From Armatimonadota bacterium (GTDB taxonomy: Bacteria > Armatimonadota > HRBIN16), in NCBI GenBank assembly GCA_963677485.1, contig OY781964.1:2434980-2498979 (forward strand): 64,000 nucleotides of DNA, given 5' to 3'. The translations under genes were made by a program, and so were the position numbers. Shown here one piece after another: positions 26,425 through 62,845 of this stretch. The notes under the pieces were generated by a model. That model was not told the DNA's origin, did no database searches, and was given only the letters and a program-made list of their open reading frames with translations. Positions within the stretch are counted from its first letter, which is position 1, and each line of letters begins with the position of its first letter.

Positions 26425-26564
26425 CTGAACCACGGATTAACCGGATGGCAAACTTGGCCCCTTTGCGTTATGTTCCCCGCCATTCGTGTTCCTTCGTGTG
26501 AATTCGTGGTTAAGAACCTCCCCAGTCAATCCCAAATCTGCGCACTCTGTGTAATCTGTGGATA
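26425..26564. repeat. Word-repeat island W5 (CTGAACCACGGATTAACCGGATGG...CATTCGTGTTCCTTCGTGTGAATTCGTGGTTAAG...AATCTGCGCACTCTGTGTAATCTGTGGAT).
   Basis: Modules are shared with W3, W4, W6 and W9. Confidence 0.8.
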
Positions 26565-26569
26565 TAAAC

Positions 26570-27433
26570 CTACCCCTTCACCAGCCGCAGCAGACAAACC
26601 TCAGGCCGGCAGCCGAACCGCAGCCAGACGGGCCCACGGCCCACGGTGCCCACCCCGCGGCCCACATACAGCGTGGGCTGAGGCATGGGCCGCCCCAGCC
26701 GCCTGGCGATGGTGCCGGGTGATACCAGACCATCAGCAAGCCAGCCGCCCAGGCGGGTGTGGCTGTATAAAGCGTGCAGGAAGGGCAGCCGCACCTGACC
26801 ACCATGGGTGTGGCCGCTGAGGATGAGCTCAAACTGGCTGCAGCGCTCATCTTCCAGGATGTCCGGCGAGTGCGAAATCAACAGACGCAGATCGGCGGCC
26901 TCACCGAGTGGGGGCAGCACCTCACCCAGCCGCGCGGAGTGCAGGAAGGCATCATCCACACCGCCTATCCAGATCGCACTACTGCGATCCGGCAGGGTCA
27001 GCTTGTAGGACTGGTTCTCCAGCACGGTCACCCCAGCCTGCCGCATCTTCTCGCGCAGATGCGGCCAGGTCTGGGCGATGTCATGCTTATGCTCGGTGTT
27101 GCCTTTCACCGCAAAAGCACCCAGCCGGGGTTTCGCGGCGTGGACTATCCGCATCAGCGGCTCGATCCCGCTGGCGGAGTTGGCAAAATCGCCATCCAGA
27201 ACCAGCAGGTCATACTCACAGCTCTGCAGAAGCTTCAGGGTGCGTCTCTCAAGGAAACTCCAACGGGTGGTATGAAGGTCGGAAAGCAGCAGGATGCTCA
27301 GCCCATCCAGAGCGGTCGGTAACTGCGGGAGTGGGATGTCGCGCCGAGTCAGATGCAGCAGTCTGGGTTCCACCAGCGCACCATATGCGTAACAGCCCAG
27401 CAATAAACTACAAACAGCCTGCAGTGGGTTCAT
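26570..27433 (-). CDS. Metallophosphoesterase (calcineurin-like, YkuE-type).
   Basis: Motifs LLSDLH, VLDGDF, GNTEHK and SGHTHGGQVRLPF. Confidence 0.8.
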   Translation of the reverse strand: MNPLQAVCSLLLGCYAYGALVEPRLLHLTRRDIPLPQLPTALDGLSILLLSDLHTTRWSFLERRTLKLLQSCEYDLLVLDGDFANSASGIEPLMRIVHAAKPRLGAFAVKGNTEHKHDIAQTWPHLREKMRQAGVTVLENQSYKLTLPDRSSAIWIGGVDDAFLHSARLGEVLPPLGEAADLRLLISHSPDILEDERCSQFELILSGHTHGGQVRLPFLHALYSHTRLGGWLADGLVSPGTIARRLGRPMPQPTLYVGRGVGTVGRGPVWLRFGCRPEVCLLRLVKG

Positions 27434-28173
27434 GCCTCGGCACCTTCAACGGGCTTGTGGATGATCGCAGCGATGCTGACGCCCCAGGGCAGGTTCACGT
27501 GGTCTAGCAACTGCAGCTCAAGCTGCTGGATTTGGATGAGCAGCCGGTTGAGCCAGGCAGGCAGCCGCGGGATGTGCGCCTGCGGGCCGGAGGCGTCTTT
27601 ACGCCGCAGCAGGCGGGTGATCACCGCAAATGGGAACAGCAGCCAGAGCGCGTAACTGGTGCGGGTGATGTGGAACCCAGCCGTGGCGCATCGTGCGGCT
27701 AGCTGAGGGGCGGTGTATCGGCGATGGTGCATCAGTGCCAGATCATGCTCGCTCCATAGTAGTCCGAAGGCGGGCACGGTGATGACTGCAAACCCTCCCG
27801 GTTTAAGCACGCGGTAGAACTCCTGCAGAGCGGCGATGTCATCTTCAAGGTGCTCCAGGATGTCCGTGGCCACAATCACGTCAATGGAGTCTGCGCGCAG
27901 CGGAAGGTGCTCTGCTTTCGCCTTCATCAAGCCCGTCAGCTCGCGTTGGAGGCAGCAGCCCAAAGCCAGCGGCGACAGATCAATGCCGATCACGCGACCA
28001 AACGGCAGCAGTTGCTGCATGGTGGCACCGGTGCCGCAGCCGATATCGCAGAGCACTAATGGTTTGGGGGGACGAACAGACTGGATGAACTGGCAGACTA
28101 ACTGGCGTCGGCTGACATACCACCAGTATCTGTCCTCGTGATCGAACATGCGCTGGTACTCAGCTGGATTCAT
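27430..28173 (-). CDS. Class I SAM-dependent methyltransferase.
   Basis: VLCDIGCGTGATM (motif I) and LKPGGFAVITVP. It overlaps the downstream gene by 4 nt. Confidence 0.85.
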   Translation of the reverse strand: MNPAEYQRMFDHEDRYWWYVSRRQLVCQFIQSVRPPKPLVLCDIGCGTGATMQQLLPFGRVIGIDLSPLALGCCLQRELTGLMKAKAEHLPLRADSIDVIVATDILEHLEDDIAALQEFYRVLKPGGFAVITVPAFGLLWSEHDLALMHHRRYTAPQLAARCATAGFHITRTSYALWLLFPFAVITRLLRRKDASGPQAHIPRLPAWLNRLLIQIQQLELQLLDHVNLPWGVSIAAIIHKPVEGAEA

Positions 28174-28924
28174 ACAGGCTCTTGTTCAGCGATCTATGGC
28201 GTCGGCGGATCTGTATCAGTTTGTGGAACATCTGGTTGGCGTCGCGGAACAGGGAGACTTTGGAGCCCTCCACATGGTGCCACTTCACCCCAACCTCTTT
28301 GACTCCAAAACCGAGCCGTCTGGCTACCACAATCGCCTCGATATCAAACGCGAAACCATCTTCCTGGCAGCGCGAAAAAATCTGATCTGAGGCCTTTTTG
28401 GTAAATATCTTAAAGCCACACTGCGTATCGATAATCCCGGGCACCGCAAGGGCCTGAACGATCAGGTTAAAGCAGCGTCCCGCCATCTCACGGTACCATG
28501 GCTGCCGTTTCTCAAGCTTCGCGCCTCTGCAGGCACGGCTGGCGATCACCACATCCGCCTGGTTATTCACGATGATAGGCAGCAGATTTTCGGTTTCGTC
28601 CAGAGGGGTGGCCAAATCGGCGTCCATGAACATCACGATGTCACCGCGCGCCTCCAGCATCCCAGTTCGCACCGCGTATCCCTTGCCGTGGTTCGGGGTG
28701 TAGTCGATCAGTCTGACCTTCGGATGCTCCACTGAAAAGCTCCGCACCAGTGCCGCGGTACCATCGGATGAGCCATCGCTCACGATGATTATCTCAAATT
28801 CGCAGCCTATAGCCTGGAAAAAGTCCCACATCTCGGGTAGAGTGCTGTGAAGGCGGGTCTGCTCATTATAGGCGGGTACAATCACAGATAGATGATGGCT
28901 ACTAAGTAGGGATGACTGCAGCAA
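28160..28924 (-). CDS. Family 2 glycosyltransferase (polyprenol-phosphate / dolichyl-phosphate glycosyltransferase-like).
   Basis: LSVIVPAYNE, IIIVSDGSSDGT and FMDADLATP are GT2 signatures. It overlaps the methyltransferase gene by 14 nt. Confidence 0.88.
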   Translation of the reverse strand: MLQSSLLSSHHLSVIVPAYNEQTRLHSTLPEMWDFFQAIGCEFEIIIVSDGSSDGTAALVRSFSVEHPKVRLIDYTPNHGKGYAVRTGMLEARGDIVMFMDADLATPLDETENLLPIIVNNQADVVIASRACRGAKLEKRQPWYREMAGRCFNLIVQALAVPGIIDTQCGFKIFTKKASDQIFSRCQEDGFAFDIEAIVVARRLGFGVKEVGVKWHHVEGSKVSLFRDANQMFHKLIQIRRRHRSLNKSLYESS

Positions 28925-29115
28925 GATAAACCTCAGTACGCAACTTAACTCAGGGTGTCACATTTAATATTGTAACGCACAGGTAATAGCTTCCCATAAT
29001 TTCACGGATATCACGAAAATACCATATCCAGGCGGTGGTAACTGGTACATTCAGTATGGGCTAATAGAACCCAGTCACAATCGAAATAAACAGCATTTAG
29101 ATATGAGGGGACATC

Positions 29116-30189
29116 ATGAACGCAAAAGAGAGAGTTCTCGCGGTGATCAACCGACAACCGGTCGATCGACTGCCTATCGATATATGGATGACCGGCGAAG
29201 TGCGCCAGTCGCTTCTTGAGCATTGTGGAGTGAACGATGACTTTGCTCTCTACAAAGCTCTGGGTATCGACAAAATCGTGTGGGTGGGTGCCGGCTATAC
29301 TTACAACCCCACCGCCGAGGCCGATGCTGCCGCTGGTCTATACCGATCCACCTATGGTCAGCCTTCGCGTGCGAAGCAGTCGGGCAACGCCATGTATCTG
29401 GAATCCGCTGGTGCTCCGCTTTTGGGTTATGACACCATCGAGTCGCTGGATGACTACCCCTACTGGCCAGACCCGGACAAGTTCGACTATGAGGGCGGGG
29501 CGGCGGCCTGCAAAGCGGTCTCTTCGGAATATGCCACCTTGGGCCCGTGGGTCAGCTTCTACGAGATTTTCTGCGGTATGCGCGGGATGGAGCAGGCGAT
29601 GATGGATGTCATCGATGACCCCGACTACGTGCAGGCGGTGCTGGACCGCATCGAATCGACCCAGACCGAGATGATGAAGCGCTTCTTTGCCGTTGTGGGT
29701 GATTCGCTGGACCTGGTGTTTATCAGCGACGACATGGGCAGCCAGTCAAGTCTACTGATCTCGCCACGACAGTGGGATATGCTGATCAAAGAGCGCATGC
29801 ACCGCTGGTGCAAGATGATCCATGACGCCGGTTATAAGGTGTTTTACCACACCGACGGGGCCGCCGAGGCACTCATCCCGAGGTTGATTGATGCTGGCAT
29901 CGACATCCTGAACCCCATCCAGCACATCTGCCCGGGCATGGAGATGGACCAACTGAAGGCCAAGTATGGCGACAAGATCATCTTCCATGGCGGTGTGGAT
30001 AACCAAGGGGCTCTGCCGTTTGGCAGCGTGGCCGATGTAGAGGCCGAAACAATGGACTGCTTGACCAAGCTGGGGGCCGGTAAAGATGGTTATCTGCCCT
30101 GCAGTTGCCACAACATCCAGGCTGGCACCCCCGTGGCCAACATCATCGCGATGATTGAGACCGTGAAAATTCGCAGCTCCGAACTGTAG
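29116..30189 (+). CDS. Uroporphyrinogen decarboxylase (URO-D)-family protein (MtaA/CmuA-like).
   Basis: 357 aa. RQPVDRLPIDIWMT...YKVFYHTDGAAEALIPRLIDAGIDILNPIQ matches the URO-D fold family. GAGGGG lies 5 nt upstream of the ATG. Confidence 0.75.
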   Translation: MNAKERVLAVINRQPVDRLPIDIWMTGEVRQSLLEHCGVNDDFALYKALGIDKIVWVGAGYTYNPTAEADAAAGLYRSTYGQPSRAKQSGNAMYLESAGAPLLGYDTIESLDDYPYWPDPDKFDYEGGAAACKAVSSEYATLGPWVSFYEIFCGMRGMEQAMMDVIDDPDYVQAVLDRIESTQTEMMKRFFAVVGDSLDLVFISDDMGSQSSLLISPRQWDMLIKERMHRWCKMIHDAGYKVFYHTDGAAEALIPRLIDAGIDILNPIQHICPGMEMDQLKAKYGDKIIFHGGVDNQGALPFGSVADVEAETMDCLTKLGAGKDGYLPCSCHNIQAGTPVANIIAMIETVKIRSSEL

Positions 30190-30221
30190 CGGATGCGGTG
30201 GTTTGGCCGTACAAACCAAAT

Positions 30222-30256
30222 GCAGGGCGAGTGATCATCGCCCCTGCGTTATTTTT
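30222..30256. terminator. Bidirectional rho-independent terminator between the convergent URO-D-family gene and folP.
   Basis: Hairpin GCAGGGCGA-GTGATCA-TCGCCCCTGC followed by GTTATTTTT. A second hairpin, TGGTTTG-GCCGTA-CAAACCA, lies just upstream. Confidence 0.7.
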
Positions 30257-30310
30257 AGTAGCACCTTATTGGGCCACCCAATCCGTCCGATGAACGAGCA
30301 GCAACAGCCT

Positions 30311-31141
30311 CTACCGTCCCATTATCGCCTCAGCCACGCGGACGGCGGGTACCACACGCTCCACATCATGCACCCTCAGCACATTCGCGCCGTTCATCAT
30401 GCCAATAATGCAGGCGGCGATAGTGCCATCTACGCGTTCCAATGGGGGTGCGCCGTTCAGAACGGCACCGATGAAGCTCTTCCGCGAGGCTCCGAGCAGG
30501 ATGGTCATCCCGAAGCGTTTGAACCGGTCCAGCTCGCGGATGATCTGCAGATTGTGCTCCACGGTCTTACCAAACCCGATGCCGGGATCAATCCAGATTT
30601 TCTGCTGCTTCACGCCAGCCTTCAAAGCCACCTCGATCTGGCGTTCAAGAAAATCGCAGATTTCGCCGATGAGGTCATCATAGTGGGGGTTGAGCTGCAT
30701 GGTGCGGGGGTCGCCTTTGGTGTGCATGATACAGCAATGTGCGTCATGTTCTGCGATCACACGGGGCATATCGGGGTCCGCGGTCAAACCGCTGACGTCA
30801 TTCACCAAAAAAGCACCAGCCTCAAGAACCATCGCTGCAACGGCAGCCTTGGTCGTATCAATTGAGACTGGTGCTTTGGTAACTAGCGTCTTGACCACCG
30901 GCAGCACCCTTTTGATCTCTGCCTCTTCCATAATAGGGAGGCTCCCCGGACGGGTGCTTTCGCCACCAACATCGATAAGATCAACGCCTTGCTGTATCAG
31001 CTCGAGACCGCGATGAACCGCGTTGTCATGGCGAAGGAACCGCCCACCATCTGAGAAAGAGTCTGGGGTTACGTTCATTATCCCCATAACTAAGGTGCGA
31101 TCGATGCTCAGACGCTCCGAACTCTGCGGGGGATTCTCCAA
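30311..31141 (-). CDS. folP: Dihydropteroate synthase.
   Basis: VMGIMNVTPDSFSDGGRF...GVDLIDVGGESTRPG...GKTVEHN is a canonical DHPS. Confidence 0.92.
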   Translation of the reverse strand: MENPPQSSERLSIDRTLVMGIMNVTPDSFSDGGRFLRHDNAVHRGLELIQQGVDLIDVGGESTRPGSLPIMEEAEIKRVLPVVKTLVTKAPVSIDTTKAAVAAMVLEAGAFLVNDVSGLTADPDMPRVIAEHDAHCCIMHTKGDPRTMQLNPHYDDLIGEICDFLERQIEVALKAGVKQQKIWIDPGIGFGKTVEHNLQIIRELDRFKRFGMTILLGASRKSFIGAVLNGAPPLERVDGTIAACIIGMMNGANVLRVHDVERVVPAVRVAEAIMGR

Positions 31142-31530
31142 TATTTGCTCCTTTGTTGGGCGTTTTGAAGTCTCCTACGCGTCCGCTCATACGGTGTCCT
31201 CGACTTTCTTGTCAAGTTGCGGACCTGCTACCCGGCCTTTTTCTCTTTCCGTTTTACCAAACTTGCCGGGTTGCTTGCTACTCGAGGTAACCGCTTCGGC
31301 TACCCGATTCGCCGGTAATGAGAACTTGCCAGGATAGTTCTGGTATTCAGTTTACCTGCTATCTTATAGCGGGCTTGGTATCAACTGAACTATATTAGTA
31401 ATACCCGGTCCTGACAGCTTGAATCTTCTTTTTATGCCCAATTACATAAGTATTATTACTAGTTTTTTGGTATCACTTGACACTACACAGTATTGCAAGG
31501 TTATTCTTTGGTAGCTACTCAGACATTAAT

Positions 31531-31693
31531 GGCTATGTCCGGGGCGGTCTGTGCGTAGGCTAGCGGATGCAGAAGGCTCAAGACCGCGCCGGTCTGGCGG
31601 TTAGCCCTAAAAGATTTTTGTCGGGAACAAGACCGGCGCGGTCTATAGACTGTGGCCACCGCAGGCGTACTGACAGACCGCCCCGGACATTGG
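31531..31693. repeat. REP/MITE-like element, full unit in inverted arrangement.
   Basis: GGCTATGTCCGGGGCGGTCT...CAAGACCGCGCCGGTCTGGCGG...AAGACCGGCGCGGTCT...CAGACCGCCCCGGACATTGG. Confidence 0.8.
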
Positions 31694-31718
31694 TAAACCA
31701 GTGAGTTCAAGGGAAATC

Positions 31719-39187: not shown

Positions 39188-42100
39188 ATGATGCACATCG
39201 GCCGAAGACTCATCTTGCATACAGCACTCATGACTATGCTCGTTTTCGCATTACTCGGATCCGCCTTCGCCGCGAAGCTTGATGACCTGGAAAGGGCATT
39301 CACCAATCCGCCGGCAGCGGCGAAACCAGGCGTGCTCTGGATGTGGATGGGCTGCAACCTCAGTAAACAAGGCATCACACGTGACCTGGAGGCGTTGAAA
39401 GCGGCAGGCTTCAACCGCACCACGATGTTCAGCCTGGCCGATGTCACTACACCATGGGCTGGGGAGATCGGCAACAGCCCGACCCCCGAGATCATATCAT
39501 GGACCGAGCCATGGTGGTAGTTGGTGTGTCATGCGGCACTTGAATCGAAGCGGCTGGGGATGGACTTCGGGATGTTCAACGGACCGAGTTATGAGTCAAG
39601 CGGAGGTCCTTGGATCACTGCAGAGAACTCCATGCAGCAGATATGTTTTTCACAAAGCCCTGTTAACGGCGGAGGGCTGATCAGCATATCTCTGCCTCGC
39701 CCTACCGTGGATCTGCGTGCTGTGCAGTCATTCCCCGTGTTCAACCCGAACACCGGCCTGGTTGAGATGCCGATAATTCCTGAACGTCAGAGTTATTACC
39801 GCGACATCGCGGTGCTTGCCATGCCCGCCGATGGTGTCGTGTCAAAAGACCAGATCATCGACCTGAGTTCCCAACTCAGTGCTGACGGCAGTCTTAACTG
39901 GAAGGCACCGACAGGGAACTGGATCATCTACCGGCTTGGTCATACCACCATGGGCACGCTCATCCAACCCGCACAATGGAAAGCAACGGGCTTCGAGTGT
40001 GACAAGATGAGCCTGGAAGCCGTCACGTTCCACATGAATCACATGGTGGGTGAGATCAAGAAGCACATCGGCGATCTGATCGGCAACAGCTTCACTCATG
40101 TGCATTTCGACAGCTACGAGGCAGGCACACCCTCATGGACACCCAAGATGCGGGAGCAGTTCGCCAAGAGGCGCGGGTATGACATGACACCTTACCTGGC
40201 TACATTCGCTGGACGCATTGTGGAAGGCGACCCACAAACCAGCAAGTTTCAAGCTGACTTCAATACCACCACTCAGGATATTTATCGCGATGTGTAGTTT
40301 AGTACCGTGCAAAAGATTCTTCATGAGGCAAAACTCGAATTCCTGTGCGAGCCATACGGCGGTCCATGGAGACAGACGGATATCATGCCAAAGGTCGATC
40401 GTGTGATGACTGAGTTCTGGACCGGAGGCGGACGCTATCAGCCCTATGAGGTGGAGTCCACCATCGCGGCACTGAGGAAGAGTGGGCAGAACATCGTGGA
40501 GGCAGAGGCCTTCACCGGCGGTCCAGGAGACAGCCAGTGGAGCGAAACACCGGATTGGCTGAAACCCATCGGCGATGCGGCCTACTGTGCTGGCATCAAC
40601 CGCTTCGTACTGCACCGCTTCCCGCAGCAGCCATGGGATGACCGATACAAACCGGGTGCCACGATGGGACAGTGGGGCACGCACTTCGACCGCACACAGA
40701 CCTGGTGGGAGCCCGGAAAGGCGATGACCAAATACTGGCAGCGATGCCAGGCGTTGCTGCAGTTTGGCAAAATCGCACCACTGGATTTCGTGGTAGATGA
40801 TTCCGCACCTTCCGGGTTTTCACCACGAGCCATTCACCGACGCACTGCGAAGCAGGATGTATGGTTCGTGGCGAATCTAGAGCGTACCGAAGGCGTGGCT
40901 GCGTGTGTATTCAACATCTCGGGCAAACAGCCTGAGCTATGGGATGCAGCAACGGGTGAACGACGTGTTCTCTCCGATTTCCAGATATCAGGCGGAGAAA
41001 CTAAGATTTATCTGAAGTTCGCACCCACCCAGAGCTTCTTCGTGGTGTTTCGCCAGCCGCTTACCAAATCTCAGATCAAGAAAAGCAACAACCCAAAACT
41101 TATACCAGTCACCGAGATAACGGGAAGCTGGGATGTCAGCTTCGACCCCAAATGGGGCGGTCCAAAGTCCGCTAAATTTGACAAGCTGACCGACTGGACT
41201 TCCCGTCCTGAAGCTGGTATACGCTATTACTCAGGGACGGCCATCTGCCGCAAGAGCTTCGATGCAACCCACTTCAAGCAGGTCACCTACCTGGAGCTAG
41301 GAACGGTGAATCACATTGCCCGCGTTCGCTTGAACGGTCGCGATTTAGGGGTGGTCTGGTGCGCTCCCTGGGGTGTGCATCTGCCCGCGAAACTGCTCAA
41401 ACCCAAGGGCAACATGCTTGAGATAGAGGTCACCAACGTCTGGGCTAACCGGTTAATTGGCGATGAACAACAACCTGCCGATTGCGAATGGCTGCCTGGG
41501 CACATGGGCGGCTGGTTCTTGAAGCGGTTCCCCGATTGGTTTGTGAAGGGTCAAGCACGACCATCCAAGGGTCGCTATTGCTTCACCACCTGGAACTACT
41601 TCACCAAAGACTCTCCGCTGGTGCCTTCAGGCTTGCTGGGGCCGGTTCGGCTGATGTCGGAAGACTGGAGCTACGCAGGCGCGCCGGTCTTTCCGGTCAC
41701 ACCTATAACCCTCCGGTCACGGGTTGGCGATACGAGCTCATCCGAGTTTGAGAATGATGTCTTGAAAAGTGGATTAGTTCCGGTTGCCAGCATCACTGAC
41801 ACCGCACCCGCACGTGATGGCGGGGGCCAGAGCGCCGATGTACTGTTTAACGGCACCACGCTGAACGGCTCTGGCGGATCAGATACCCTTAACGATGGCA
41901 AGACCTTCCGCGGTTATGGCACAGGCAGCCTGTTGGATATCCGCTTCGATACAGCCAAAAATCCCAAGGGTTACGACCTGACAGCCATTCGCAGCTTCGC
42001 CGGACACTTTGACAGCCGGTCCAGCCAGAGCTACACGCTGCTGGTCGCCTTTGCCGGTGACCCGATGAAGTTCATTAAGTTAACGTCGGTAAAGCTACTC

Positions 42101-42274
42101 TACGGCGGGAAATCCACTGAGTTACGAATCGCCGCACGGGATGGCGGCGTGCTGCGCAACGATGAGGGCTGCAGGGCCTCTGGCGTAGCGGCAGTAAGGT
42201 TCGCTTTCGATGATGGAGCTGTAGGCTTCAATGTCTACCGCGAAGTATGCATTGTTGGAACACCGACACGGTAA
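39188..42274 (+). pseudogene. Glycoside hydrolase, GH106-like (alpha-L-rhamnosidase family; assignment tentative), 1028 codons, interrupted by two in-frame TAG codons (39518-39520 and 40295-40297). Pseudogene, sequencing artefact or readthrough candidate.
   Basis: The three ORF-track pieces (39188-39520, 39521-40297, 40307-42274) are all in the same frame and contiguous. Signal peptide, then FTNPPAAAKPGVLWMWMGCNLSKQGITRDLEALKAAGFN N-terminal motif. Both stops are TAG, in a G-TAG-TT context. Confidence 0.7.
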
Positions 42275-46774: not shown

Positions 46775-46806
46775 AGGGGCAGGCCGTTTGGCCTGCCCCT
46801 TTTTTC
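46775..46806 (+). terminator. Rho-independent terminator after the GH95 gene.
   Basis: AGGGGCAGGCC-GTTT-GGCCTGCCCCT followed by TTTTTT. Confidence 0.85.
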
Positions 46807-46919: not shown

Positions 46920-48635
46920 ATGAGTATCAAGTATTACGAAACGCTGCCGGATGTATGGTCAGAAGGGGCTCTGTTTGCCTATTCAGGCATCGACGGACCT
47001 ACCTGCACAGCATCGGGGTTTGTGTCTACTCTGCTGGAAAAACCTTTCGGGCTGCTAATTCATACACCCATGCAGCGCATGATCCGGTTTCTGCTCAAAG
47101 GCGGTGGACATGTCGACCTTGTCACGGGTGACTTAACGGCGATGGTAACCACTCTGGGTAATTTCGGACTGGCATACAGTGAGTGGCACACCATCATTGG
47201 GATATTACCTGAGCAGGCGGAAGTGCGTGTCGTCCGTGAGTTCGGCCTGTGGGAGAACCTGAACGATGTGGCGATCTCCGTGGACGAGGCAACTCACGAC
47301 GCGGTGGTCATGCAGGCGGTGGGCAGCCGCCTCGCCATCTGCTACGGCGATTGTCTGGAGCAGGCCATGGGCCGTCTCGATGATGCATTGAAGCTGGACT
47401 TTGAAACAGTCGCCATCGAGCGTATGAGGTTCGCAGGATCCGTAATGGGCCTGACCGATAAGTATCAGGCGTTACTGATGAAATGTCTGTGCGTGATGAA
47501 GGTCAACACCTTATGGCCTGAGGGGGCCATCAAACGACGCTGGAGCACCCCTGACCGCCTGCCGCACCGTCATATGTGGATGTGGGATAGCGTGTTCCAC
47601 GCCCTGGGCATGCTGCTGTATGACAGCGCGCTGGCTTGGGACTTCGTCGATGCCGTACTCGACACCCAGCAGGAAGATGGCATGATCCCGCATATGGACC
47701 GCATTGACGGCACCCATTCCGAGATCACACAACCTCCGCTGCTGGCTTGGGCCGTGAGGGAAGTGGAATCGGGGCTGAGCGATCCTCAGTGCCTGCAGAT
47801 GGCATATCCTAAGCTGCTGAAATACCTGGAGTGGTTTGACGCCAACCGATGTGATGAGGCCAGCGGGCTGTATTACTGGCACATTAATGAGGATGCAAAC
47901 AACCGCTGCGATGAGAGCGGTATGGACAACTCCCCACGGTTTGATGGAGGCGTTCGGCTATTAGCCGTCGATCTGACCTGTTATCTGGCAAATGAGTGGG
48001 CCAACATGGCGATTATCGCCGAACGAATGGGGCTTGATGACGAAGCGGATCAGGCCTGGCAGCGGTCAGCACAGCTGGCGGAGCAGATTTATCTGCGCAT
48101 GTGGAACGAAAAGAGCGGCTTCTACCATGACTTGCATCTTGACGGCTCGTTTAGTCCTGTGCTGGCCGTGAGTGGGTTCCTGCCGCTTCTGCTGCCCTCC
48201 TTGCCTAAGACACATCTGGCTTCACTACTGAAGCACCTGGATAACCCCATGACTTTCGGCACACGCTACCCGGTGCCCTCGGTGGCCGCGAACGACCCTT
48301 CCTATGGTCACGACATGTGGCGCGGGGCCACCTGGGTCAACATGAACTGGATGATCTACACTGGTCTGAAGCTGCAAAGAAAGCCCAAAGAAGCCCGCAA
48401 GCTGGCCAAGGCGACCATCGACGCCGCCGAAGCAGCCGCTAAAGCGCATGGCGTGATCTTTGAGTATATGGACAGCGCAGGCAAGATGGCGCCTACTCTG
48501 CTTGACCGTAAGGGTAAATGCGAGAACAAGCCGTACCTGGTGGGCAAGATGGATTCCGTGCGTGATTACCACTGGAGCGCGGCATTACTCGCGCGCATGA
48601 TCGTAGAGGTTGCCAAGCTCAAGAAGCAAGGCTGA
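46920..48635 (+). CDS. (alpha/alpha)6-barrel glycoside hydrolase, GH63 / mannosylglycerate-hydrolase / trehalase-like.
   Basis: WSEGALFAYSGIDGPT...HMWMWDSVFHALGMLLYDSALAWDFVDAVLDTQQEDGMIPHM is typical of the GH63/GH37 six-hairpin clan. Confidence 0.65.
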   Translation: MSIKYYETLPDVWSEGALFAYSGIDGPTCTASGFVSTLLEKPFGLLIHTPMQRMIRFLLKGGGHVDLVTGDLTAMVTTLGNFGLAYSEWHTIIGILPEQAEVRVVREFGLWENLNDVAISVDEATHDAVVMQAVGSRLAICYGDCLEQAMGRLDDALKLDFETVAIERMRFAGSVMGLTDKYQALLMKCLCVMKVNTLWPEGAIKRRWSTPDRLPHRHMWMWDSVFHALGMLLYDSALAWDFVDAVLDTQQEDGMIPHMDRIDGTHSEITQPPLLAWAVREVESGLSDPQCLQMAYPKLLKYLEWFDANRCDEASGLYYWHINEDANNRCDESGMDNSPRFDGGVRLLAVDLTCYLANEWANMAIIAERMGLDDEADQAWQRSAQLAEQIYLRMWNEKSGFYHDLHLDGSFSPVLAVSGFLPLLLPSLPKTHLASLLKHLDNPMTFGTRYPVPSVAANDPSYGHDMWRGATWVNMNWMIYTGLKLQRKPKEARKLAKATIDAAEAAAKAHGVIFEYMDSAGKMAPTLLDRKGKCENKPYLVGKMDSVRDYHWSAALLARMIVEVAKLKKQG

Positions 48636-48645
48636 TAATGCCTTT

Positions 48646-49300
48646 GACCGGGGCGGTCTCGGTTGCCTATGTCCGGGGCGGTTTTCCCTAACCACGCCGG
48701 CCTTGATCCATGCGTGACGAGGGATTTACGGCTAACCGCCAGACCGGCGCGGTCTTGAGTCTTCTGTAGCCGCGAGCCTCCTGTCAGACCGCCCCGGACA
48801 TAGGCAATGATTGCTTCTCGATATTATGGCCAGCGTCCGGGGCGGTTTCTCCTAACCGCGCCGGTCTTGATCTATGCGTGACGAGGGATTTACGGCTATC
48901 CGCCAGACCGGCGCGGTCTTGAGCTTTCTGTAGCCGCCAGCCTCCTGTCAGACCGCCCCGGACATAGGCAATGATTACTTCTTGATATTATTGCCAGAGT
49001 CCGGGCGGTTTTCTCCTAACCGCGCCGGTCTTGATCTATGCGTGACGAGGGATTTACGGCTATCCGCCAGACCGGCGCGGTCTTGAGATTTCTGCAACCG
49101 CAAGCCGCCTGTCAGACCGCCCGGACATAGGCAATGGTAGCTTCTCAATATTATGGCCAGAGTCCGGGGCGGTTTTCCCTAACCGCGCCGGTCTTGATCT
49201 ATACGTGACGAGGGATTAACGGCTATCCGCCAGACCGGCGCGGTCTTGAGCCTTCAGTAGCCTCGAGCCACCTGTCAGACCGCCCCGGACATAGGCAATG
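48646..49300. repeat. Tandem array of four REP/MITE-like units of about 160-165 bp. Each has inverted repeats GTCCGGGGCGGT...AGACCGCCCCGGACATAGG and inner arms ACCGCGCCGGTCT...AGACCGGCGCGGT.
   Basis: Four head-to-tail copies are directly visible with scattered point differences. The array fills the whole gap between two convergent GH genes. Confidence 0.9.
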
Positions 49301-49328
49301 GTAGCACCAGCAATCCGCAGAATCTCCC

Positions 49329-52300
49329 CTACGGCAGCCTGACATCCGTGTAGCTGCCGACGCTCAACTTCGCGCTGGCGGCACTAAGGTGGACGCGCAT
49401 GGCGCCCTTGAACGGCTTATACACCAGCTTCTCGACATCATAAAGAACAGGCAGTTTGGCGGTGGGGATGGTGGCCCGGTAGGCCCCGTCCTTACCCAGC
49501 GGGATGTCCTGCCAGATGTCCTCACTGGGCACAAACTCCGCGCGGATGCTGGCTGGTGTGAGCGGTTTGCCGCTGATTTCGTAGAGCCTGGCGGCGATCT
49601 GCAGACCGCTTTTCGAAGCCGTGACGCTGGTGCGCATACCCATCTGGCCCATCAAACGGCGGGCATGGGCGATAGCCTTCACATGGTCGCCTTCAGACTG
49701 CGCGGTGTTCATGGCCTCCAGCTCATACTGACTGGCCGCGGTGAGGGCTTTCAGGCCTTTCCAGCGTGCGGCGACAGTTTTAGCCTGCGCCACGGCGGCC
49801 TGAGCTTCTTGCTGTGTGCTCTTCTGCATGAACTGCACGTAGCATTTGCCGTTAGCCTCCATCGAGACCGTGCCGCTGAAGCCTTGCCCGCTCCAACTGT
49901 CGCTGGCTACAGCAGCACTGCTCTCATACCGCGACTCCACCAACCCGAACCTCTGTGCCAGAGGGCGCAAATCCACATCCATCTTGACCGACTGGTTGCT
50001 AGTGTTGATGAACACCACAAACATATTCATGCCATCGCTGAGGGCCATCGTCTCCAGCCGCTGTCGTGCAGGAACATCCAACATGTAGCTGGCTTGAAGC
50101 AGTCTGGTACCCGGAACAGGCTGGTCGTTCAAGTAAGCCTGGCTGCCCTCGACCGCGTTTTTGGGGTCGCTCCACCAGCCCAGGTGCAGGTCCGGAGTGC
50201 CCTTGTCTGCCGTCATGCGCACATAAACTGTGGCATTAGCCGGCGGTGATTTTTGCAGGGTGAGGGTGTAGTTGGCACCATCGGTGAGAGGGGCGTCGAT
50301 ATGCTTGCTTCCCAGCAGCTCACCGGATGGGCTGTCGATGAACGCCTCCAGCGTCAGCCCATACTCATGCTTTTTCGTATAGGTAGGCACGTTGATGGAG
50401 ATGGAGGTCAGGCCCTCTGCGAATGTTTTGATGGTCTGACCCAGACTGAGACCGTCGACCACCTGATGGGCATCCCGCGGGCCGTTGAAGTTGCCGTTGC
50501 TCCAAGTGGTGGGCTGCTTGGCCATGTCGCTATTGTTGACAAGCACCGTGCGCAAGCTGTCGGGCAGTTGGCTGGCCGCATCGAACACGCTAGTGCTGGC
50601 TATCCGTCGGATTTCGCCTTTGCCCACGCGCTCTGACGCCGGGCCAGGTGTATCGGTGATGAGTATACCGCCCTGCTGTACATACTCATCGAGCTTGGTC
50701 TGCACGTCGGGCTCGATCAGTGAGTTGCCCAGGCTGATGAGGTATTCATAGCCTTTGGCCTCACCTTTGCGCAGCAGATTGTCTGAAAGATAGTATTTGG
50801 CGATCTGGTTTTGTATACAAGAGATGTGTATCTCGTCCCACTTGGGTTGATACCCACGCAGTGCCCAGGTCGGGTGCGAGCGGTAAACCGCCACCGAGGG
50901 CGTCACGGGGTGCATCCCCTCCAGCACGGGTGAAAGCAGCTTCAACTCCATAAACAGCCGGTCGATAGCCTTCTCGCCTGGAGTGCCGCGCACGCCCCAC
51001 TCGCCATCGGGCAGGGTACCCGACCACTGCACCAATCCGAGGTGCCAGGCTCCGCTGCCAATGGTCTCGCTGATGTAGCGGGTGGCGGCTTGTGGGGTGA
51101 AACTGCGTCCTCCACCGCGGGCGGTGGGATCCGTAAACTTGTAGGCCAGCCGGTTGGGGCTGTAGGGCTTGCCAAACGGCAGCAGGGTTTCAATATACTG
51201 CATGTTGAAGTAGCTCGGGTCGTCGTCTATGATGATCTGACCCGTCTCCCAGCCGTCGCTGTTGGAGACGAACAGATCAGGCGACCACCCCATGCCCGCG
51301 TAGGTGTTGCCAGTGAATATCGTGCCGTGGTTGCAGGTAAAGGCGGGCTTGCTGAGGTCCACATCACGGAAAGCCTGGTAGAACTGTCCCGAATGTTCCG
51401 CCATCGCCACGAAGCGGAAGTCCAGCCAGTCTTTCCAACTCTGCTGCTCGCTGGGAGCACGAGGCGCGTCCAGCTTCTCCCAGCTTGGGTTTTGGCTGCT
51501 CCAGGCCTTGTTCAACGCCTCTAGTGTGCCGTATTTATGTTTTAACCAGGCGCGGAAGTGGTTCAGGCTGGTTGCGCTGTAGTCGGTCCATCTATTGGCA
51601 TCAAGATAGGTGTAGTAGAGGCTTTCACCGCCCATCAGCCAGTAGATGACATTCGGGAAATCGCTCAAGGCCTTGGCGTTGATTCGGCAAAACTGCCGTG
51701 AACCCAGCACAAATGCGGGGTGCTCTAGACCGTTGCAGGGCACCATGGTGCCGAACATCCCGCCTAAAATCGGCTGGTTATACTGGTCGAGTTGCACCGA
51801 TTCGGGGAACTTCTTCATAAACCATTCGGGCATATATGGGAAACCAGGGTTATTCCAGTTACCCAGATTCGCCACCACATATAGCCCCAATTTCGACATG
51901 ATGGTGGCTTGGTTTGGACCTAGCACCAAGCACTGATGCTTCTGATCTGAGGCGACCACATCCTGCCACTGACCATTAGCATGGATCTGAAGTTCAAAAT
52001 CGAAGTTGGCGTAGTTTCCACCATCGGAGCCTGCCTTCCCCTGGGAATAGGGGTTGTTCTCCCGTGCCCACCAGGCGACATAGCTGCCGGTTGGGCGTGA
52101 AAGAACCAGCTGGTATTTACCGGCGGACTGGGGCTTAAATCGGAACTCGGCATGTTGATTGTCTTTCAGATAGCTGCTCTGCCCTTTGGCCGCGTCGGCC
52201 CACGACTTGCCGTTCCACTTCTGAAGGCTCCAGTTGCATTGGCTGTTGGTGCTCATCATGGTGGCCAGGCAAGGGCCGATACCGTCAAAAGCAGCCGTAG

Positions 52301-52592
52301 CGGTGAATGACTGCCAGAGCTTGGTGGGGGCCATCACATTGCTGACCCCGCAGCCATACGGTGCAGAGGCATCTTGCGTCGGAGTCCACATGGCACCAAT
52401 CGAACCAGTATTGGCATTGGTCTTGGCCATTTCCGCCCAGTCTGCCTGCTGATCGACAAATGGATAGCCGTAATACTGAAGCGGCTGCTTCACTATGGGC
52501 TGCCATTCCGGTTTCAGCGAGGTGCTGATGGGACCAGCCATGGCCATTCCGCCAACGACTAGAGTGATACCGAGGTGTAGAATCCGACGCAT
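49329..52592 (-). CDS. Large secreted glycoside hydrolase with a GH42-like (beta-galactosidase-type) domain.
   Basis: Signal peptide. ...YSATSLNHFRAWLKHKYGTLEALNKAW matches the GH42 F..WL...YG....LN.AW motif. 1087 aa. Confidence 0.65.
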   Translation of the reverse strand: MRRILHLGITLVVGGMAMAGPISTSLKPEWQPIVKQPLQYYGYPFVDQQADWAEMAKTNANTGSIGAMWTPTQDASAPYGCGVSNVMAPTKLWQSFTATAAFDGIGPCLATMMSTNSQCNWSLQKWNGKSWADAAKGQSSYLKDNQHAEFRFKPQSAGKYQLVLSRPTGSYVAWWARENNPYSQGKAGSDGGNYANFDFELQIHANGQWQDVVASDQKHQCLVLGPNQATIMSKLGLYVVANLGNWNNPGFPYMPEWFMKKFPESVQLDQYNQPILGGMFGTMVPCNGLEHPAFVLGSRQFCRINAKALSDFPNVIYWLMGGESLYYTYLDANRWTDYSATSLNHFRAWLKHKYGTLEALNKAWSSQNPSWEKLDAPRAPSEQQSWKDWLDFRFVAMAEHSGQFYQAFRDVDLSKPAFTCNHGTIFTGNTYAGMGWSPDLFVSNSDGWETGQIIIDDDPSYFNMQYIETLLPFGKPYSPNRLAYKFTDPTARGGGRSFTPQAATRYISETIGSGAWHLGLVQWSGTLPDGEWGVRGTPGEKAIDRLFMELKLLSPVLEGMHPVTPSVAVYRSHPTWALRGYQPKWDEIHISCIQNQIAKYYLSDNLLRKGEAKGYEYLISLGNSLIEPDVQTKLDEYVQQGGILITDTPGPASERVGKGEIRRIASTSVFDAASQLPDSLRTVLVNNSDMAKQPTTWSNGNFNGPRDAHQVVDGLSLGQTIKTFAEGLTSISINVPTYTKKHEYGLTLEAFIDSPSGELLGSKHIDAPLTDGANYTLTLQKSPPANATVYVRMTADKGTPDLHLGWWSDPKNAVEGSQAYLNDQPVPGTRLLQASYMLDVPARQRLETMALSDGMNMFVVFINTSNQSVKMDVDLRPLAQRFGLVESRYESSAAVASDSWSGQGFSGTVSMEANGKCYVQFMQKSTQQEAQAAVAQAKTVAARWKGLKALTAASQYELEAMNTAQSEGDHVKAIAHARRLMGQMGMRTSVTASKSGLQIAARLYEISGKPLTPASIRAEFVPSEDIWQDIPLGKDGAYRATIPTAKLPVLYDVEKLVYKPFKGAMRVHLSAASAKLSVGSYTDVRLP

Positions 52593-53551: not shown

Positions 53552-54170
53552 GTTGCCGCGGGTTTAGTCACCCCATGAATGGGGTTCCCTCACCGCGCGT
53601 CTAGGTTATCGCAGCCCGCAAGCGGGCGCATGTTGCCCTCCGCCAGCGCCTGCAGGAGCGTAGCGACGCGGGCAGCCATCTAATCAGCGACGGGTGATGG
53701 AGCCCCCTGGGGCGATGGAACCCGTCGACACGGGACGGTCGTTGATATCGGAGGTGTTTAGCCCTCGCTGCCGCGGGTTTAGTCACCCCGTGAACGGGGT
53801 TCCCTCACCGCGCGTCTAGGTATTGGCAGCCCGTAATCGGGCGCATGGCCCTCCGCCAGCGCCCGCAGGAGCGAAGCGACGCGGGCAGCCATCTGATCAG
53901 CGACGGGTGATGGAGCCCCCTGGGGCGATGGAACCCGTCGACTCGGGGCCGCTCACCTATATCGCAGGCTACCAGCCTCGCTGCCGCGGGTTTAGTCACC
54001 CCATGAATGGGGTTCCTTCACCGCGCGTATAGGTATTTGCAGCCCGCAAGCGGGCGCATGGCCCTCCGCCAGCGCCCGCTGGAGCGAAGCCGACGCGGGC
54101 AGCCAACTGATCAGCGACGGGTGATGGAGCCCCCTGGGGCGATGGAACCTGTCGACACGGGCGTGTTGAC
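53552..54170. repeat. Tandem array of about 2.9 copies of a 216-bp unit rich in hairpins. Candidate structured ncRNA or satellite.
   Basis: Units start at 53552, 53768 and 53984 (period 216). The hairpin CACCCCATGAATGGGGT in units 1 and 3 reads CACCCCGTGAACGGGGT in unit 2; the A-T pair becomes G-C, a compensatory change. Other conserved hairpins: GCCCGCAAGCGGGC and GCCCCCTGGGGC. The small ORFs at 53601-54204 are repeat artefacts. Confidence 0.85.
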
Positions 54171-57713: not shown

Positions 57714-58071
57714 GGGGCTGAACCGCGGATGGACGCAGATAGACGCGGATGGGGAGGAGTATCTGAACCACGGATTACGCGGATGACACGGATGGGTTCG
57801 GATGGAGAGGGAGTGCCTACACCACGGATGGACGCAGATAGACGCCGATGGGGGAGTGTCTGAACCGCGGCTTACGCGGATGACACGGATGGGTTCGGAT
57901 GGAGAGGGAGTGTCTATTCTACGGATGGACACGGATGGACACGGATGGACACCGATGGGTTCGGATGGGAGGTGCATCATCAACCACTATACACAGTTAC
58001 TTATCCTCTATGGTTCAGATGCTCCCTCTCCATCTGTGTCATCATGAAAATCCGTGTAATCCGTGGTTCAG
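57714..58071. repeat. Word-repeat island W8 (CTGAACCGCGGATGGACGCAGATAGACGCGGATGG, CTGAACCACGGATTACGCGGATGACACGGATGGGTTCGGATGG x2, ACGGATGGACACGGATGGACACGGATGGACACCGATGG...AATCCGTGTAATCCGTGGTTCAG).
   Basis: Direct reading with 10-bp periodicity. It ends with a reverse-complement copy of the GAACCACGGATTAC module. Confidence 0.85.
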
Positions 58072-58134: not shown

Positions 58135-58181
58135 TACAAACAAAAGGCATCGACCGCCCCGGTGAAGGGGCGGTCAACACT
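58135..58181 (-). terminator. Rho-independent terminator for the minus-strand operon 60382-58190.
   Basis: Perfect hairpin GACCGCCCC-GGTGAA-GGGGCGGTC. On the minus strand it is followed by CTTTTGTTTG. The stem shares the REP core GACCGCCCCGG. Confidence 0.75.
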
Positions 58182-58189: not shown

Positions 58190-58648
58190 CTACTTGACTT
58201 CCAGAAGCACGGGGGCAGTGTAGTTGTCGGGTAGGGTATCTACCTGGTACTCGCGGCTGAGATTCGGGTAGTCTGAGAACTTCGCGAGCTTGGCTGTGAT
58301 GGTGTCTTTGGCCTTGTTCTTCTTGATGGCAGGAACGATCTTGCCGTTCAAGATGCCCCATCGAAGCACGCGGATCACGGTGCCGGGCTTCACGCCATCG
58401 ATTTTGCCACCCTTGACCGCCTTGACTTTCCACTCTTGTGCGATCAGCACATTCAGGTAAGGTTTCACACGGTTAGGATCCGGCACTGGAGTGACCTGGC
58501 TAATTGTGGCCGTGACGCTGATCTTGGTGATGGCCTTGCCCTTAGGTGCCACGGACGGGGCCGTGATCTGCTGCGTACTGACGGCAGCTACCGTTCCTAG
58601 CATTAATACTGCTGCGAAAGATGCTGGTACCCATTTTGCGATTTTCAT
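58190..58648 (-). CDS. Small secreted hypothetical protein (152 aa).
   Basis: Signal peptide MKIAKWVPASFAAVLMLGTVAAVS. AGAGGGA lies 6 nt upstream of the ATG. It is 21 nt downstream of the previous gene. Confidence 0.6.
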   Translation of the reverse strand: MKIAKWVPASFAAVLMLGTVAAVSTQQITAPSVAPKGKAITKISVTATISQVTPVPDPNRVKPYLNVLIAQEWKVKAVKGGKIDGVKPGTVIRVLRWGILNGKIVPAIKKNKAKDTITAKLAKFSDYPNLSREYQVDTLPDNYTAPVLLEVK

Positions 58649-61522: not shown

Positions 61523-62335
61523 ATGGAAAAAAATAGAACTGGTATTATAGCGGCGTATGTGCTGCTTCTGATGTTTGGATTAGGTTTCATCGTCCGCTAC
61601 AGCGGTTTGAGCCTAATTGGAGTGAAGCAGACGCAAGTGGCCTTCTCAAAGATAATGGACCAATCGGGTGACAGCCAGGCGTTGTACGAAGAGGCACTTC
61701 GGCGTTTAGGCGATCGGGCTGAGATTACGAAACAACAACAAGTATTGGGCATTCTCGCCAGTATGTCGGCATACCGTGCTGTCAGGCAGGTTGCCAGTCA
61801 CCTGCTCAGTCAGCCCGATATTGCCAATGACAAAGTCAACCGCCGTATGCTTTTGTCGATGAGAGGGGCAGCCTCCCTGGAAACCGGTTATATGAAAGAG
61901 GGTCTGGCTGACTATGAGGCCAACTGGAAGGCAAATTCTAGCGAAGCGAAAGCCAAAAACGACTTAGCTTATGCGCTGGTGCTGAACAAAGTGGACCTGG
62001 ACCGTGCCGAGGGGTTGGCTGCGCAAGCCTACAACAGTGAGAACAACGCCAGTTTCGCAGACACTCTGGGATGGATAGCCATTTACCAGGGGAACTACAG
62101 CAAAGGGTTGCAGTTACTGCTGGATGCATCTGGCGATGTGCCGGATGCGTATGAAGTCAGATATCATGCCGGAGTGGCATACTGGGCCACGGGTGACTAT
62201 GCCAAAGCTGCGACCGAATTGACGATGGCGATCAAGCTTTACAAGACGAATCGCCGTGGTACGAACTCCGCCTATCAAGCGGTACTCGATCTAGTGAACG
62301 CCAAAACGCCTTTCAGGACGGAGCTGATTCCGTAG
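61523..62335 (+). CDS. Membrane-anchored TPR-repeat protein.
   Basis: N-terminal transmembrane helix, then TPR-like helical repeats (AYALVLNKVDLDRAEGLAAQAY..., YHAGVAYWATGDYAKAATEL). There is a 1-nt gap after the CPBP gene, indicating an operon. Confidence 0.6.
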   Translation: MEKNRTGIIAAYVLLLMFGLGFIVRYSGLSLIGVKQTQVAFSKIMDQSGDSQALYEEALRRLGDRAEITKQQQVLGILASMSAYRAVRQVASHLLSQPDIANDKVNRRMLLSMRGAASLETGYMKEGLADYEANWKANSSEAKAKNDLAYALVLNKVDLDRAEGLAAQAYNSENNASFADTLGWIAIYQGNYSKGLQLLLDASGDVPDAYEVRYHAGVAYWATGDYAKAATELTMAIKLYKTNRRGTNSAYQAVLDLVNAKTPFRTELIP

Positions 62336-62349: not shown

Positions 62350-62845
62350 TCCTCCGGATGGCCTCACGCGGAGAGCGCGAAGGGGAAGGACCATCCACAG
62401 ATTACGCAGATTACGCAGATTACGCAGATTGGCTGAACCGCGGATAGACGCAGATGAACGCGGATGGGACATCTCATGACCGGGGCGGTCATGCAGTAAC
62501 CTGGCGGCACCAGAAAGCTCAAGACCGTGCGGGTCTTTTGTTTGAACCACGAATGAACACAGATAGACACGAATGGACGCAGATGAACGCGGGTGATCGA
62601 ACCACAACGTATAAGCTATTGGCCAAACCGTAGTTAACGCCAGACACACAGTGCGTAGTCACATACCTCCGCGCCTTTGCTTCTTGGCGTCTTTGCGTTG
62701 AATCCCGATTCTACCATCCATGTCATCCGATCCATCTGCGTTCATCTGCGTCTATCCGCGGTTAAGACAATCTGCGTAGTCTGTGTAATCTGTGGATGAA
62801 TCCTCCCCCTCCGCGTCCTCCGCGTCTCTGCGTGAGACACACCCA
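62350..62845. repeat. Word-repeat island W9 (GATTACGCAGATTACGCAGATTACGCAGATTGG; CTGAACCGCGGATAGACGCAGATGAACGCGGATGG; GAACCACGAATGAACACAGATAGACACGAATGGACGCAGATGAACGCGGGTG; CCATCTGCGTTCATCTGCGTCTATCCGCGGTTAAG; AATCTGCGTAGTCTGTGTAATCTGTGGATG; CTCCGCGTCCTCCGCGTCTCTGCGTGAGAC).
   Basis: Direct reading. Copies in both orientations occur within one island. The ORFs at 62275-62649 and 62364-62570 are artefacts. Confidence 0.85.
62476..62543 (+). terminator. Hairpin pair inside W9: the palindrome CATGACCG-GGG-CGGTCATG, and the terminator-like AAGACCGTGCGGGTCTT followed by TTGTTT.
   Basis: Seen directly. The stems reuse the REP-family cores (GACCGGGGCGGTC, AGACCG..CGGTCTT). Confidence 0.45.

Follow-up and report, generated by a model that had tools for sequence, protein, structure and literature searches.

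The 64,000-nucleotide stretch analyzed here (positions 2,434,980 to 2,498,979 of contig OY781964.1 in the Armatimonadota bacterium assembly GCA_963677485.1; hereafter the window) carries at 48646-49300 a tandem array of palindromic repeats between two convergent glycoside hydrolase (GH) genes. An earlier note on this DNA had described a unit of about 160-165 bp, repeated head to tail four times in the gap and built from terminal and inner inverted repeats, and had likened it to repetitive extragenic palindromes (REPs) and bacterial interspersed mosaic elements (BIMEs) or else to a miniature transposable element with inverted repeats (MITE). The outline of the array was well drawn: Tandem Repeats Finder places it at 48671-49305 with a period of 164, 3.9 copies, 91% matches and a score of 1044, and a repeat search of the window finds four copies in register at spacings of 164, 164 and 163. 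Both inverted repeats are exact. The outer one, TTGCCTATGTCCGGGGCGGT / ACCGCCCCGGACATAGGCAA, is 20 nt long and 100% complementary with 105 nt between its arms, forming perfect terminal inverted repeats (TIRs) of the unit, and the inner one, ACCGCGCCGGTCT / AGACCGGCGCGGT, is 13 nt long and likewise 100% complementary, with arms 37 nt apart. The sequence ACCGCGCCGGTCT occurs 14 times in the window, against 0.12 expected from shuffles, and GTCCGGGGCGGT, allowing one mismatch, also 14 times, against 0.47 expected. The gap filled by the array measures 693 bp and lies between a GH63/MGH1-like gene on the + strand and a GH42-like gene on the - strand. Its features are listed below, where P1 and P2 are the palindromic motifs of the right half of the unit (the core, which was searched with a hidden Markov model, HMM) and P1′ and P2′ are their complements in the left arm.

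46920-48635, + strand: upstream flanking gene, MGH1-like/GH63 glycoside hydrolase of 571 aa (Pfam PF22422, 5.6e-56; PF03200, 7.6e-23)
48639-48659, + strand: solo P2′-like motif tgcctttGACCGGGGCGGTCt, immediately 5′ of the array (sequence, inverted-repeat search)
48663-48826, + strand: unit T1, with the left TIR at 48663-48682 and the core at 48728-48810, followed by a linker (core HMM, E 5e-25)
48827-48990, + strand: unit T2, the reference unit (repeat search, alignment, folding)
48991-49153, + strand: unit T3, 163 bp (repeat search, alignment)
49154-49300, + strand: unit T4, the last, with the right TIR at its end (49279-49298; repeat search, core HMM)
49329-52592, - strand: downstream flanking gene, GH42-like, 1087 aa, convergent (Pfam PF02449, 1.1e-12; syntenic in the relatives L027 and L029)

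The first palindromic motif begins 3 nt beyond the stop codon of the MGH1-like/GH63 gene, whose orthologues from other metagenome-assembled genomes (MAGs) of Armatimonadota are 89% and 67% identical in aa sequence, and T4 ends 29 nt from the stop codon of the opposite-strand GH42-like gene. The reference unit T2 consists of a short hairpin, P2′-TTTCTCCTA-P1′ (48835-48867), a central loop (48868-48904) and a long hairpin, P1-spacer-P2 (48905-48963), followed by the tail ATAGGCAAT and a 27-nt linker. The array accordingly runs P2′, P1′ / P1, P2 four times over, with two types of linker. In T1 the P1′ of the short-hairpin arm has two changes (ACCACGCCGGCCT). T3 has lost 1 nt from each outer arm, one G from the left (GTCCGGGCGGT, 48999-49009) and one C from the right (ACCGCCCGGAC, 49116-49126), with the pairing of P2′ and P2 kept; matched deletions that leave the arms complementary fit the TIR-bounded unit as a structural entity.

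The earlier note had taken the element of about 160-165 bp as the unit. However, alignment of all window copies shows that the conserved, dispersed module is the right half of about 80 nt, that is, the core, which reads GGCTAWCCGCC-AGACCGGCGCGGTC (P1)-about 30 variable nt-CAGACCGCCCCGGAC (P2)-ATAGGCAAT, its 3′ end also being written ATAGGCAA. P1, P2 and their left-arm complements are all versions of a single 13-nt palindrome, GACCG-NNN-CGGTC, and the palindrome GWCCGNNNCGGWC is found in the window 17 times where 0.27 would be expected. There is hardly any variation in P1 and P2, whereas the identity of the spacer averages 58%. In an RNAalifold consensus of 39 cores, P1 pairs with P2 around the spacer by 10 bp with a conserved C.C mismatch; as both arms of this long hairpin are invariant, no covariation can be counted there.

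The left arm of the array unit forms a separate short hairpin, P2′-TTTYCCCTA-P1′, with a predicted energy of -12.7 kcal/mol as single-stranded DNA (ssDNA; z -5.1), while the long hairpin of T2 has -12.6 kcal/mol as ssDNA. The TIR-bounded unit, in which the core is joined to the short-hairpin arm, is 129 nt long and has two alternative predicted folds, a short plus a long hairpin or one long nested hairpin, so that the term double hairpin used by the earlier note is ambiguous. The fold of the whole unit has -34.2 kcal/mol as ssDNA (z -4.5), and -68.1 (+ strand, z -3.4) and -74.2 (- strand, z -4.6) as RNA; overall, ssDNA and RNA folds give z-scores from -2.4 to -8.4. The short hairpin occurs in four variants, alpha, beta, gamma and delta, in which the arms change together and the loop is kept: beta is GACCGGCCCGG-TTTTCCCTTT-CCGGGCCGGTC, and in gamma P1′ and P2′ are exchanged. 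Over 24 copies of the short hairpin, 82.9% of cells are paired and two-sided changes occur in 3 pairs (9 cells), with a covariation score of 0.12 as against 0.035 in shuffles, none of 500 of which reach it, and at most 0.064 in slid controls. At L030 12770-13080, in the related chromosome OW818647.1, there is also a tandem variant of the family of about 120 nt, with AGACCGGCCCGG-aaagggaaaa-CCGGGCCGGTC hairpins and a reversed core leader (CGCGGTCTGGCGGACAGCC), which means that sub-families with co-changed stems exist.

Elsewhere in the window, the earlier note had placed copies at 1672-1886, 24971-25044 and 31531-31693, which makes four loci with the array. These copies are real, with boundaries corrected as below, but the loci number five, as a degenerate copy lies at 62475-62546; the solo motif at 48639-48659 is a further addition. 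In total, the core HMM finds 10 cores at 5 loci.

1669-1811, + strand: complete unit (short arm, loop and core), 34 nt beyond the stop codon of the upstream gene (alignment, core HMM)
1822-1889, + strand: long hairpin of the preceding unit, duplicated locally in tandem (30/30 spacer identity; P2 degenerate, CCCCGAAC)
24979-25061, + strand: solo core with one mismatch in P1; in front of it, the remnant of an inverted partner (alignment, core HMM)
31531-31696, 31528-31607 on the - strand and 31620-31697 on the + strand: symmetric element resembling a REPIN, two cores head to head (alignment, core HMM)
62475-62546, - strand: degenerate core, the fifth locus (core HMM, E 4.7e-10)
58147-58180, - strand: intrinsic terminator with a P2 motif as its stem, related to the family and not a copy of it, after the gene 58190-58648 (-) and conserved in L027

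The solo core at 24979-25061 adjoins a 230-nt MITE (24662-24889) upstream of dinB. The symmetric element at 31531-31696 lies 22 nt after the stop codon of priA and is predicted to fold as a 150-nt ssDNA hairpin of -52.7 kcal/mol (z -8.4). Its halves are of two types, a with the GGCTAWCCGCC leader and b with a TGTCGGGAACA leader, and the combination of type a with type b recurs in L001, L002 and L006 of the related chromosome and in L032, with distinct a and b halves in the inverted pairs of L001 (3578-3729) and L032. On the + strand, the degenerate copy at 62475-62546 reads GACCGGGGCGGTC-spacer-AGACCGTGCGGGTCT and then TTTTGTTTG, a terminator-like arrangement downstream of the gene 61523-62335 (+). 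The terminator at 58147-58180 reads GACCGCCCC-ttcacc-GGGGCGGTC followed by CTTTTGTTTG.

How far does the family extend beyond the window? In a genome collection with one genome per species, a pattern scan locates at least 24 more loci, in the 5.32-Mb metagenome-assembled chromosome OW818647.1, so that the element is not confined to the window, a point on which the earlier note had made its reading depend; among the matches listed, all 24 lie in this chromosome. OW818647.1 represents a related species, its syntenic DNA being 88-93% identical and its orthologous proteins 87-96% identical to those of the window, and the closest named protein relatives of the window genes come from Armatimonadota MAGs. 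The core HMM detects 35 copies in 192 kb of OW818647.1 loci. By extrapolation from the non-seed copies within these loci, a density of about one locus per 40-50 kb would correspond to a number of loci of the order of 10^2 per genome; the high copy number of REPs stands for more than about 100 in a genome. The exact pattern is missing from 2.9 million viral contigs, and of 241 million metagenome records a single 1-kb contig has it; blastn with the unit gave no match in plasmid or phage collections, and no family copy is present in 21.7 kb of the relative L027. A literature search found no paper mentioning the source assemblies.

The copies are arranged in several ways: as solo cores, which are the majority in OW818647.1, as inverted pairs of about 152 nt, as cores with a short-hairpin arm and as tandem clusters, those in L007, L014 and L021 having other periods. 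The left flank of the elements is often GGTCTTGAT. Many OW818647.1 cores have the same fusion point ('...gtcgacgggt'), at which they join a 213-nt repeat family in reverse complement. This second family forms its own tandem array in the window at 53554-54161 (2.8 copies of a 213-nt unit with 89% matches), flanked by an AP_endonuc_2-like and a URO-D gene; it is dispersed in OW818647.1 (L007, L008, L009, L016, L018), and L027 has one copy of it at the orthologous site. Short-period repeats made of words such as ACGGATGGAC, CGCGAAGACGCGAAGG, CAGATTACG and ATCTGCGT lie at 57722-57958, 16908-16995, 62398-62430 and 62690-62800; they fill many intergenic gaps and recur often in OW818647.1 (L030).

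With respect to genes, the family is placed downstream, between co-directional or convergent open reading frames (ORFs), and is rare in divergent gaps. On a crude gene annotation, which took the longest ORFs that do not overlap and have 150 aa or more, a core is present in 9 of 18 convergent gaps, 16 of 70 co-directional gaps and 1 of 18 divergent gaps (Fisher's test, p=0.007 for convergent versus divergent and p=0.067 for divergent versus the rest). A stop codon often lies 16-50 nt away from the P2 end. The orientation is unbiased with regard to the upstream gene, with 25 copies in the same and 24 in the opposite direction, and no association was seen with local GC skew as a proxy for the replication strand, the 8-kb skew being too noisy to inform. 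Six cores overlap ORF calls of at least 110 aa; the frames concerned are at most 245 aa long and run through repeat DNA, and they are probably not genes.

The wider surroundings may be noted briefly. By synteny with OW818647.1 (L033 480-5652), the window starts (1-1635) within a gene of 1141 aa that comes immediately after dnaA, and since this synteny puts dnaA about 4 kb before the window start, the presumed replication origin is no more than a few kb away; the GC skew of the + strand is positive (0.021). The frame 1926-5186 encodes a protein of about 1045 aa without a Pfam domain, with homologues of 45-87% identity in many Armatimonadota, Hydrogenedentes, Planctomycetota and Sumerlaeota MAGs; the GTG at 1926 is likely followed by its true start about 38 codons downstream, and a 563-aa GH42-like gene adjoins it. 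The gene calls of the source contig (L025) break a GH106-family gene at 39191-42274 into three successive ORFs of 109, 221 and 629 aa, which reflects a pseudogene, frameshifts or indel errors of long reads.

Comparison with relatives indicates a turnover of the copies. In L027/L028 (GCA_054606775.1, about 88% nt identity) the GH63|GH42 gap is 187 bp long and contains no unit, sharing with the window only the solo motif CCGGGGCGGTCT (cgcctaaCCGGGGCGGTCTg at L027 11733-11750). This absence is probably real because short-read assemblers normally break at such arrays; the Logan contig L026 stops inside the first unit, 57 bp past the stop codon. In the more distant relative L029 (67% identity) the gap measures 101 bp, and a classic bidirectional terminator takes the place of the array. 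The gap of OW818647.1 (L033) orthologous to 1669-1889 lacks the element and has a copy of the 230-nt MITE instead, with the end of the upstream gene and the downstream promoter-like region aligning well. Synteny with OW818647.1 around URO-D covers only 26539-31473, stopping 55 nt before the inverted pair at 31531-31696, and variant family members lie at both breakpoints in OW818647.1. As both ends of this block coincide with repeat clusters in both genomes, the repeats are suggested to mark rearrangement breakpoints at window positions 26539 and 31473.

The four array copies arose by local tandem duplication of the unit together with its linker (27-35 nt), as the earlier note had proposed in speaking of tandem amplification. 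The 27-nt linker is co-amplified with the unit at a constant period, T1-T4 are mutually 87-90% identical, and in the variable spacer the nearest relatives of each unit are the other three. The array, the duplicate at 1822-1889 and a pair of units in L014 with 97% identical spacers together mean that such duplication is recurrent; it may have proceeded by slippage or by unequal exchange between palindromes.

Dispersal to new sites is a different matter. None of the 11 complete elements is flanked by a direct repeat that could be a target-site duplication. The 230-nt MITE serves as a positive control: its copy in L002 (5492-5728) is inserted in the spacer of a core and is flanked by a 9-bp duplication, TCTATAGAC, and therefore the test works in this lineage. 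This MITE (24662-24889 in the window) is 91-96% identical to at least eight copies in OW818647.1 loci and has TIRs of about 18 nt (CAGTCTATKTACCYACAA) and a long internal inverted repeat (CCGCGACATAAATGTCTCGGCTATTGA). L030 of OW818647.1 also contains an IS110-family transposase from 19931 onward.

What kind of element is this? Among known systems, the closest match is with the REP, BIME and REPIN elements. In BIMEs, REPs are regularly spaced in alternating orientation (PMC2817692); in REPINs, two inverted REPs form a hairpin, and they are thought to be moved by RAYTs (PMC3337134). In proteobacteria, REPs, BIMEs and REPINs are mobilized by RAYT, a Y1 transposase resembling that of IS200/IS605 (PMC2817692, PMC3116915, PMC3337134). 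The Armatimonadota family shares with them GC-rich, imperfect palindromes in extragenic, lineage-specific copies (the copy number here being a lower bound), the occurrence as singles, as REPIN-like inverted dimers (31531-31696) and as alternating clusters with distinct linkers and two types of arm, and the lack of target-site duplication. It also serves as an insertion target for other mobile elements, as illustrated by the MITE inside a core in L002. The preference for gene 3′ ends in convergent and co-directional gaps, which the earlier note had pointed out together with the REP/BIME-like architecture and which the gap counts bear out, is another common trait: Di Nocera et al. (PMC3733652) likewise describe REPs as lying downstream of genes and as lineage specific. 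On these grounds, the array is probably a cluster resembling a BIME and belonging, in an uncultured Armatimonadota bacterium, to a lineage-specific family of extragenic palindromic repeats that has not been described before, REP/BIME- and REPIN-like in kind. A literature search found no report of a REP-like family for this phylum.

The core with its P1-spacer-P2 hairpin is the entity dispersed through the genome, and in the mechanism that we envisage the family would have spread as non-autonomous DNA without target-site duplication. The lack of such duplications would be better accounted for by a single-strand, hairpin-recognizing mechanism of the HUH/RAYT type than by a DDE transposase.

Several observations weigh against this interpretation. 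As the earlier note had stated, no RAYT or transposase is evident in the window, where no gene has a transposase Pfam domain, and a phmmer search with E. coli RayT against 2,602 frames of at least 60 aa returned nothing below E=0.96, a weak negative given that it used one distant probe on about 340 kb of two 5-Mb genomes. A second point is the tag. The classical REP super-families are defined by a GTAG or CGTC tag, an unpaired tetranucleotide at one end of the palindrome (PMC3733652). No such tag adjoins the stems of the present family: the conserved flanks GGCTAWCCGCCAGA (5′) and ACATAGGCAAT (3′) contain no GTAG/CTAC or CGTC/GACG on either strand, and GTAG appears only in some spacers, where it is unconserved. 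The core hairpin, at about 60-80 nt, is above the 20-40 bp of classical REPs, every stem is built from a single 13-nt palindrome used four times per unit, and the host phylum also differs. The double deletion in T3 sits in G4/C4 runs and could be a coincidence or an assembly error. The near-invariance of P1 and P2 is, in the OW818647.1 loci, partly a matter of construction, because these loci were retrieved with that very pattern, and the covariation of the short hairpin amounts to a few variant classes counted several times, which is supportive, not conclusive, as the events are few and inherited. There is no clean empty site either: both orthologous gaps (L027 and L033) are wholly replaced, so that gain is not separable from loss and exact insertion boundaries are undefined. 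Finally, the array units have no canonical U-tract, which makes a terminator role for the array a conjecture. With the tag absent and no RAYT found in the sequence searched, the family is called REP/BIME-like by its build and distribution, rather than a member of the RAYT-REP group.

A second group of elements deserves comparison in this connection. The TIR families associated with the TIRYT tyrosine transposases (Di Nocera et al. 2013, PMC3733652) are moderately abundant, with longer inverted repeats that are in some cases self-complementary, and form dimers or clusters as REPs do; among their hosts are deep-branching phyla without GTAG REPs, for example Acidobacteria. The GGGGWSAS motif given there as common to these TIRs is not present here, where P2′ is GGGGCGGT, and this too counts against a simple assignment; nor does this genome have a known TIRYT gene. 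A more specific proposal, which we put forward tentatively and consider doubtful as it stands, is that the family represents an untagged Armatimonadota system of REP/BIME type, with hairpins made from one palindrome and carrying conserved mismatches, that has been spread by a new HUH/Y1 clade (RAYT- or TIRYT-like) with a different cleavage signal, or by another enzyme, and has partly been co-opted as host terminators or 3′-end hairpins.

The alternative raised by the earlier note, a MITE, would make the element a deletion derivative of an insertion sequence (IS) with 20-bp TIRs, moved in trans by a DDE transposase and then tandemly duplicated. Perfect 20-nt TIRs around an element of 129-152 bp speak for such an origin, and the family resembles bacterial MITEs such as Correia, RUP and the 230-nt element also in that it is non-coding, 130-165 bp in size, multi-copy, intergenic, and present or absent between related genomes, in a lineage that has active MITEs and IS (the 230-nt MITE and the IS110-family transposase of L030). 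However, where the true MITE of the lineage has made a clear duplication of 9 bp, 0 of 11 complete elements of the family has one; half elements (solo cores), often fused to or shuffled with other repeat modules, predominate, which is unexpected for cut-and-paste movement of a TIR-bounded unit; the internal motifs are better conserved than the rest of the element; and a parent IS sharing these TIRs did not turn up in the roughly 340 kb examined. We therefore regard a MITE origin as unlikely.

Equally unlikely, in our estimation, is that the repeat is a host-encoded functional hairpin, be it a terminator, a 3′-end stabilizer or a protein-binding palindrome, that has been multiplied by recombination or local duplication with GACCG-NNN-CGGTC kept by selection. 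The P motifs are near-invariant while the spacers drift, and binding sites for dimeric proteins usually take the form of a 5-3-5 palindrome. The copies prefer gaps with gene 3′ ends, and L029 has its classic terminator in the very gap of the array. Moreover, P-motif hairpins with T-rich tails stand exactly at terminator positions, at 58147-58180 (-), at 62478-62546 (+) and at L030 7344-7395, where the hairpin itself (7344-7382) lies 15 nt after a stop codon. The array itself shows no canonical U-tract terminator: a scan of 48300-49600 gave 2 sites against 1.0 expected, neither convincing. Two convincing canonical terminators in the window are the one at 58147-58180 (-), conserved and with a P2 motif as its stem, and the one at 46775-46800 (+) after the GH95 gene. 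Like intrinsic terminators, members of the family are GC-rich hairpins that follow stop codons at distances of a few to tens of nt, in some cases with T-rich tails; in contrast to them, the array units and most cores have no U-tract, loops are 8-35 nt long and copies are related by descent and arranged in arrays, and termination needs no four copies in a row. The conserved flanks (GGCTAWCCGCC, ATAGGCAAT and the loop TTTYCCCTA) speak for shared descent rather than convergence, and the positions of the copies are unconserved between genomes of about 88-93% nt identity. A host function is in any case compatible with mobility, as REPs do both.

Under the preferred, REP/BIME-like reading, the P-motif hairpins at terminator positions lead us to think of members of the family as 3′-end hairpins, some of them terminators, as has been proposed for REPs. 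The array hairpins, lying within 3-30 nt of both convergent stop codons, would probably act as 3′-end barriers or stabilizers, and copies with T-rich tails would probably act as terminators. The family may have arisen from terminator stems or have been co-opted as such.

A tandem family of structured non-coding RNA genes with their own transcription is very improbable: the predicted folds are stable with significant z-scores, the short hairpin shows some covariation and a promoter-like match lies just upstream (48610-48639), but that match is within chance (1 versus 0.5 expected), Rfam gives no hit at the gathering score over the whole window and, in 48600-49340, none at E<5 and only two matches at chance level (E about 5), the copies show no strand bias with respect to neighboring genes (25 same, 24 opposite), both strands fold equally well, as DNA palindromes do, and a variable interior with a conserved stem is the reverse of most functional RNAs. 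A CRISPR-like array is ruled out by continuous repeats, the lack of unique spacers and a period that is not a multiple of 3, and a coding repeat by the position of the array between two stop codons.

The array findings leave the understanding of the flanking genes unchanged. What they add to a well-known kind of bacterial repeat is a new family with a narrow distribution. Extragenic palindromic repeats have been well studied in proteobacteria but hardly in uncultured, deep-branching phyla, and a family with REP/REPIN/BIME architecture but without the GTAG/CGTC tag would provide a useful test of whether RAYT-like enzymes or something else propagate repeats outside proteobacteria. In practical terms, such repeats break short-read assemblies, as exemplified by contig L026; since their copy number varies, they can serve as strain markers, and they may be hotspots of rearrangement.

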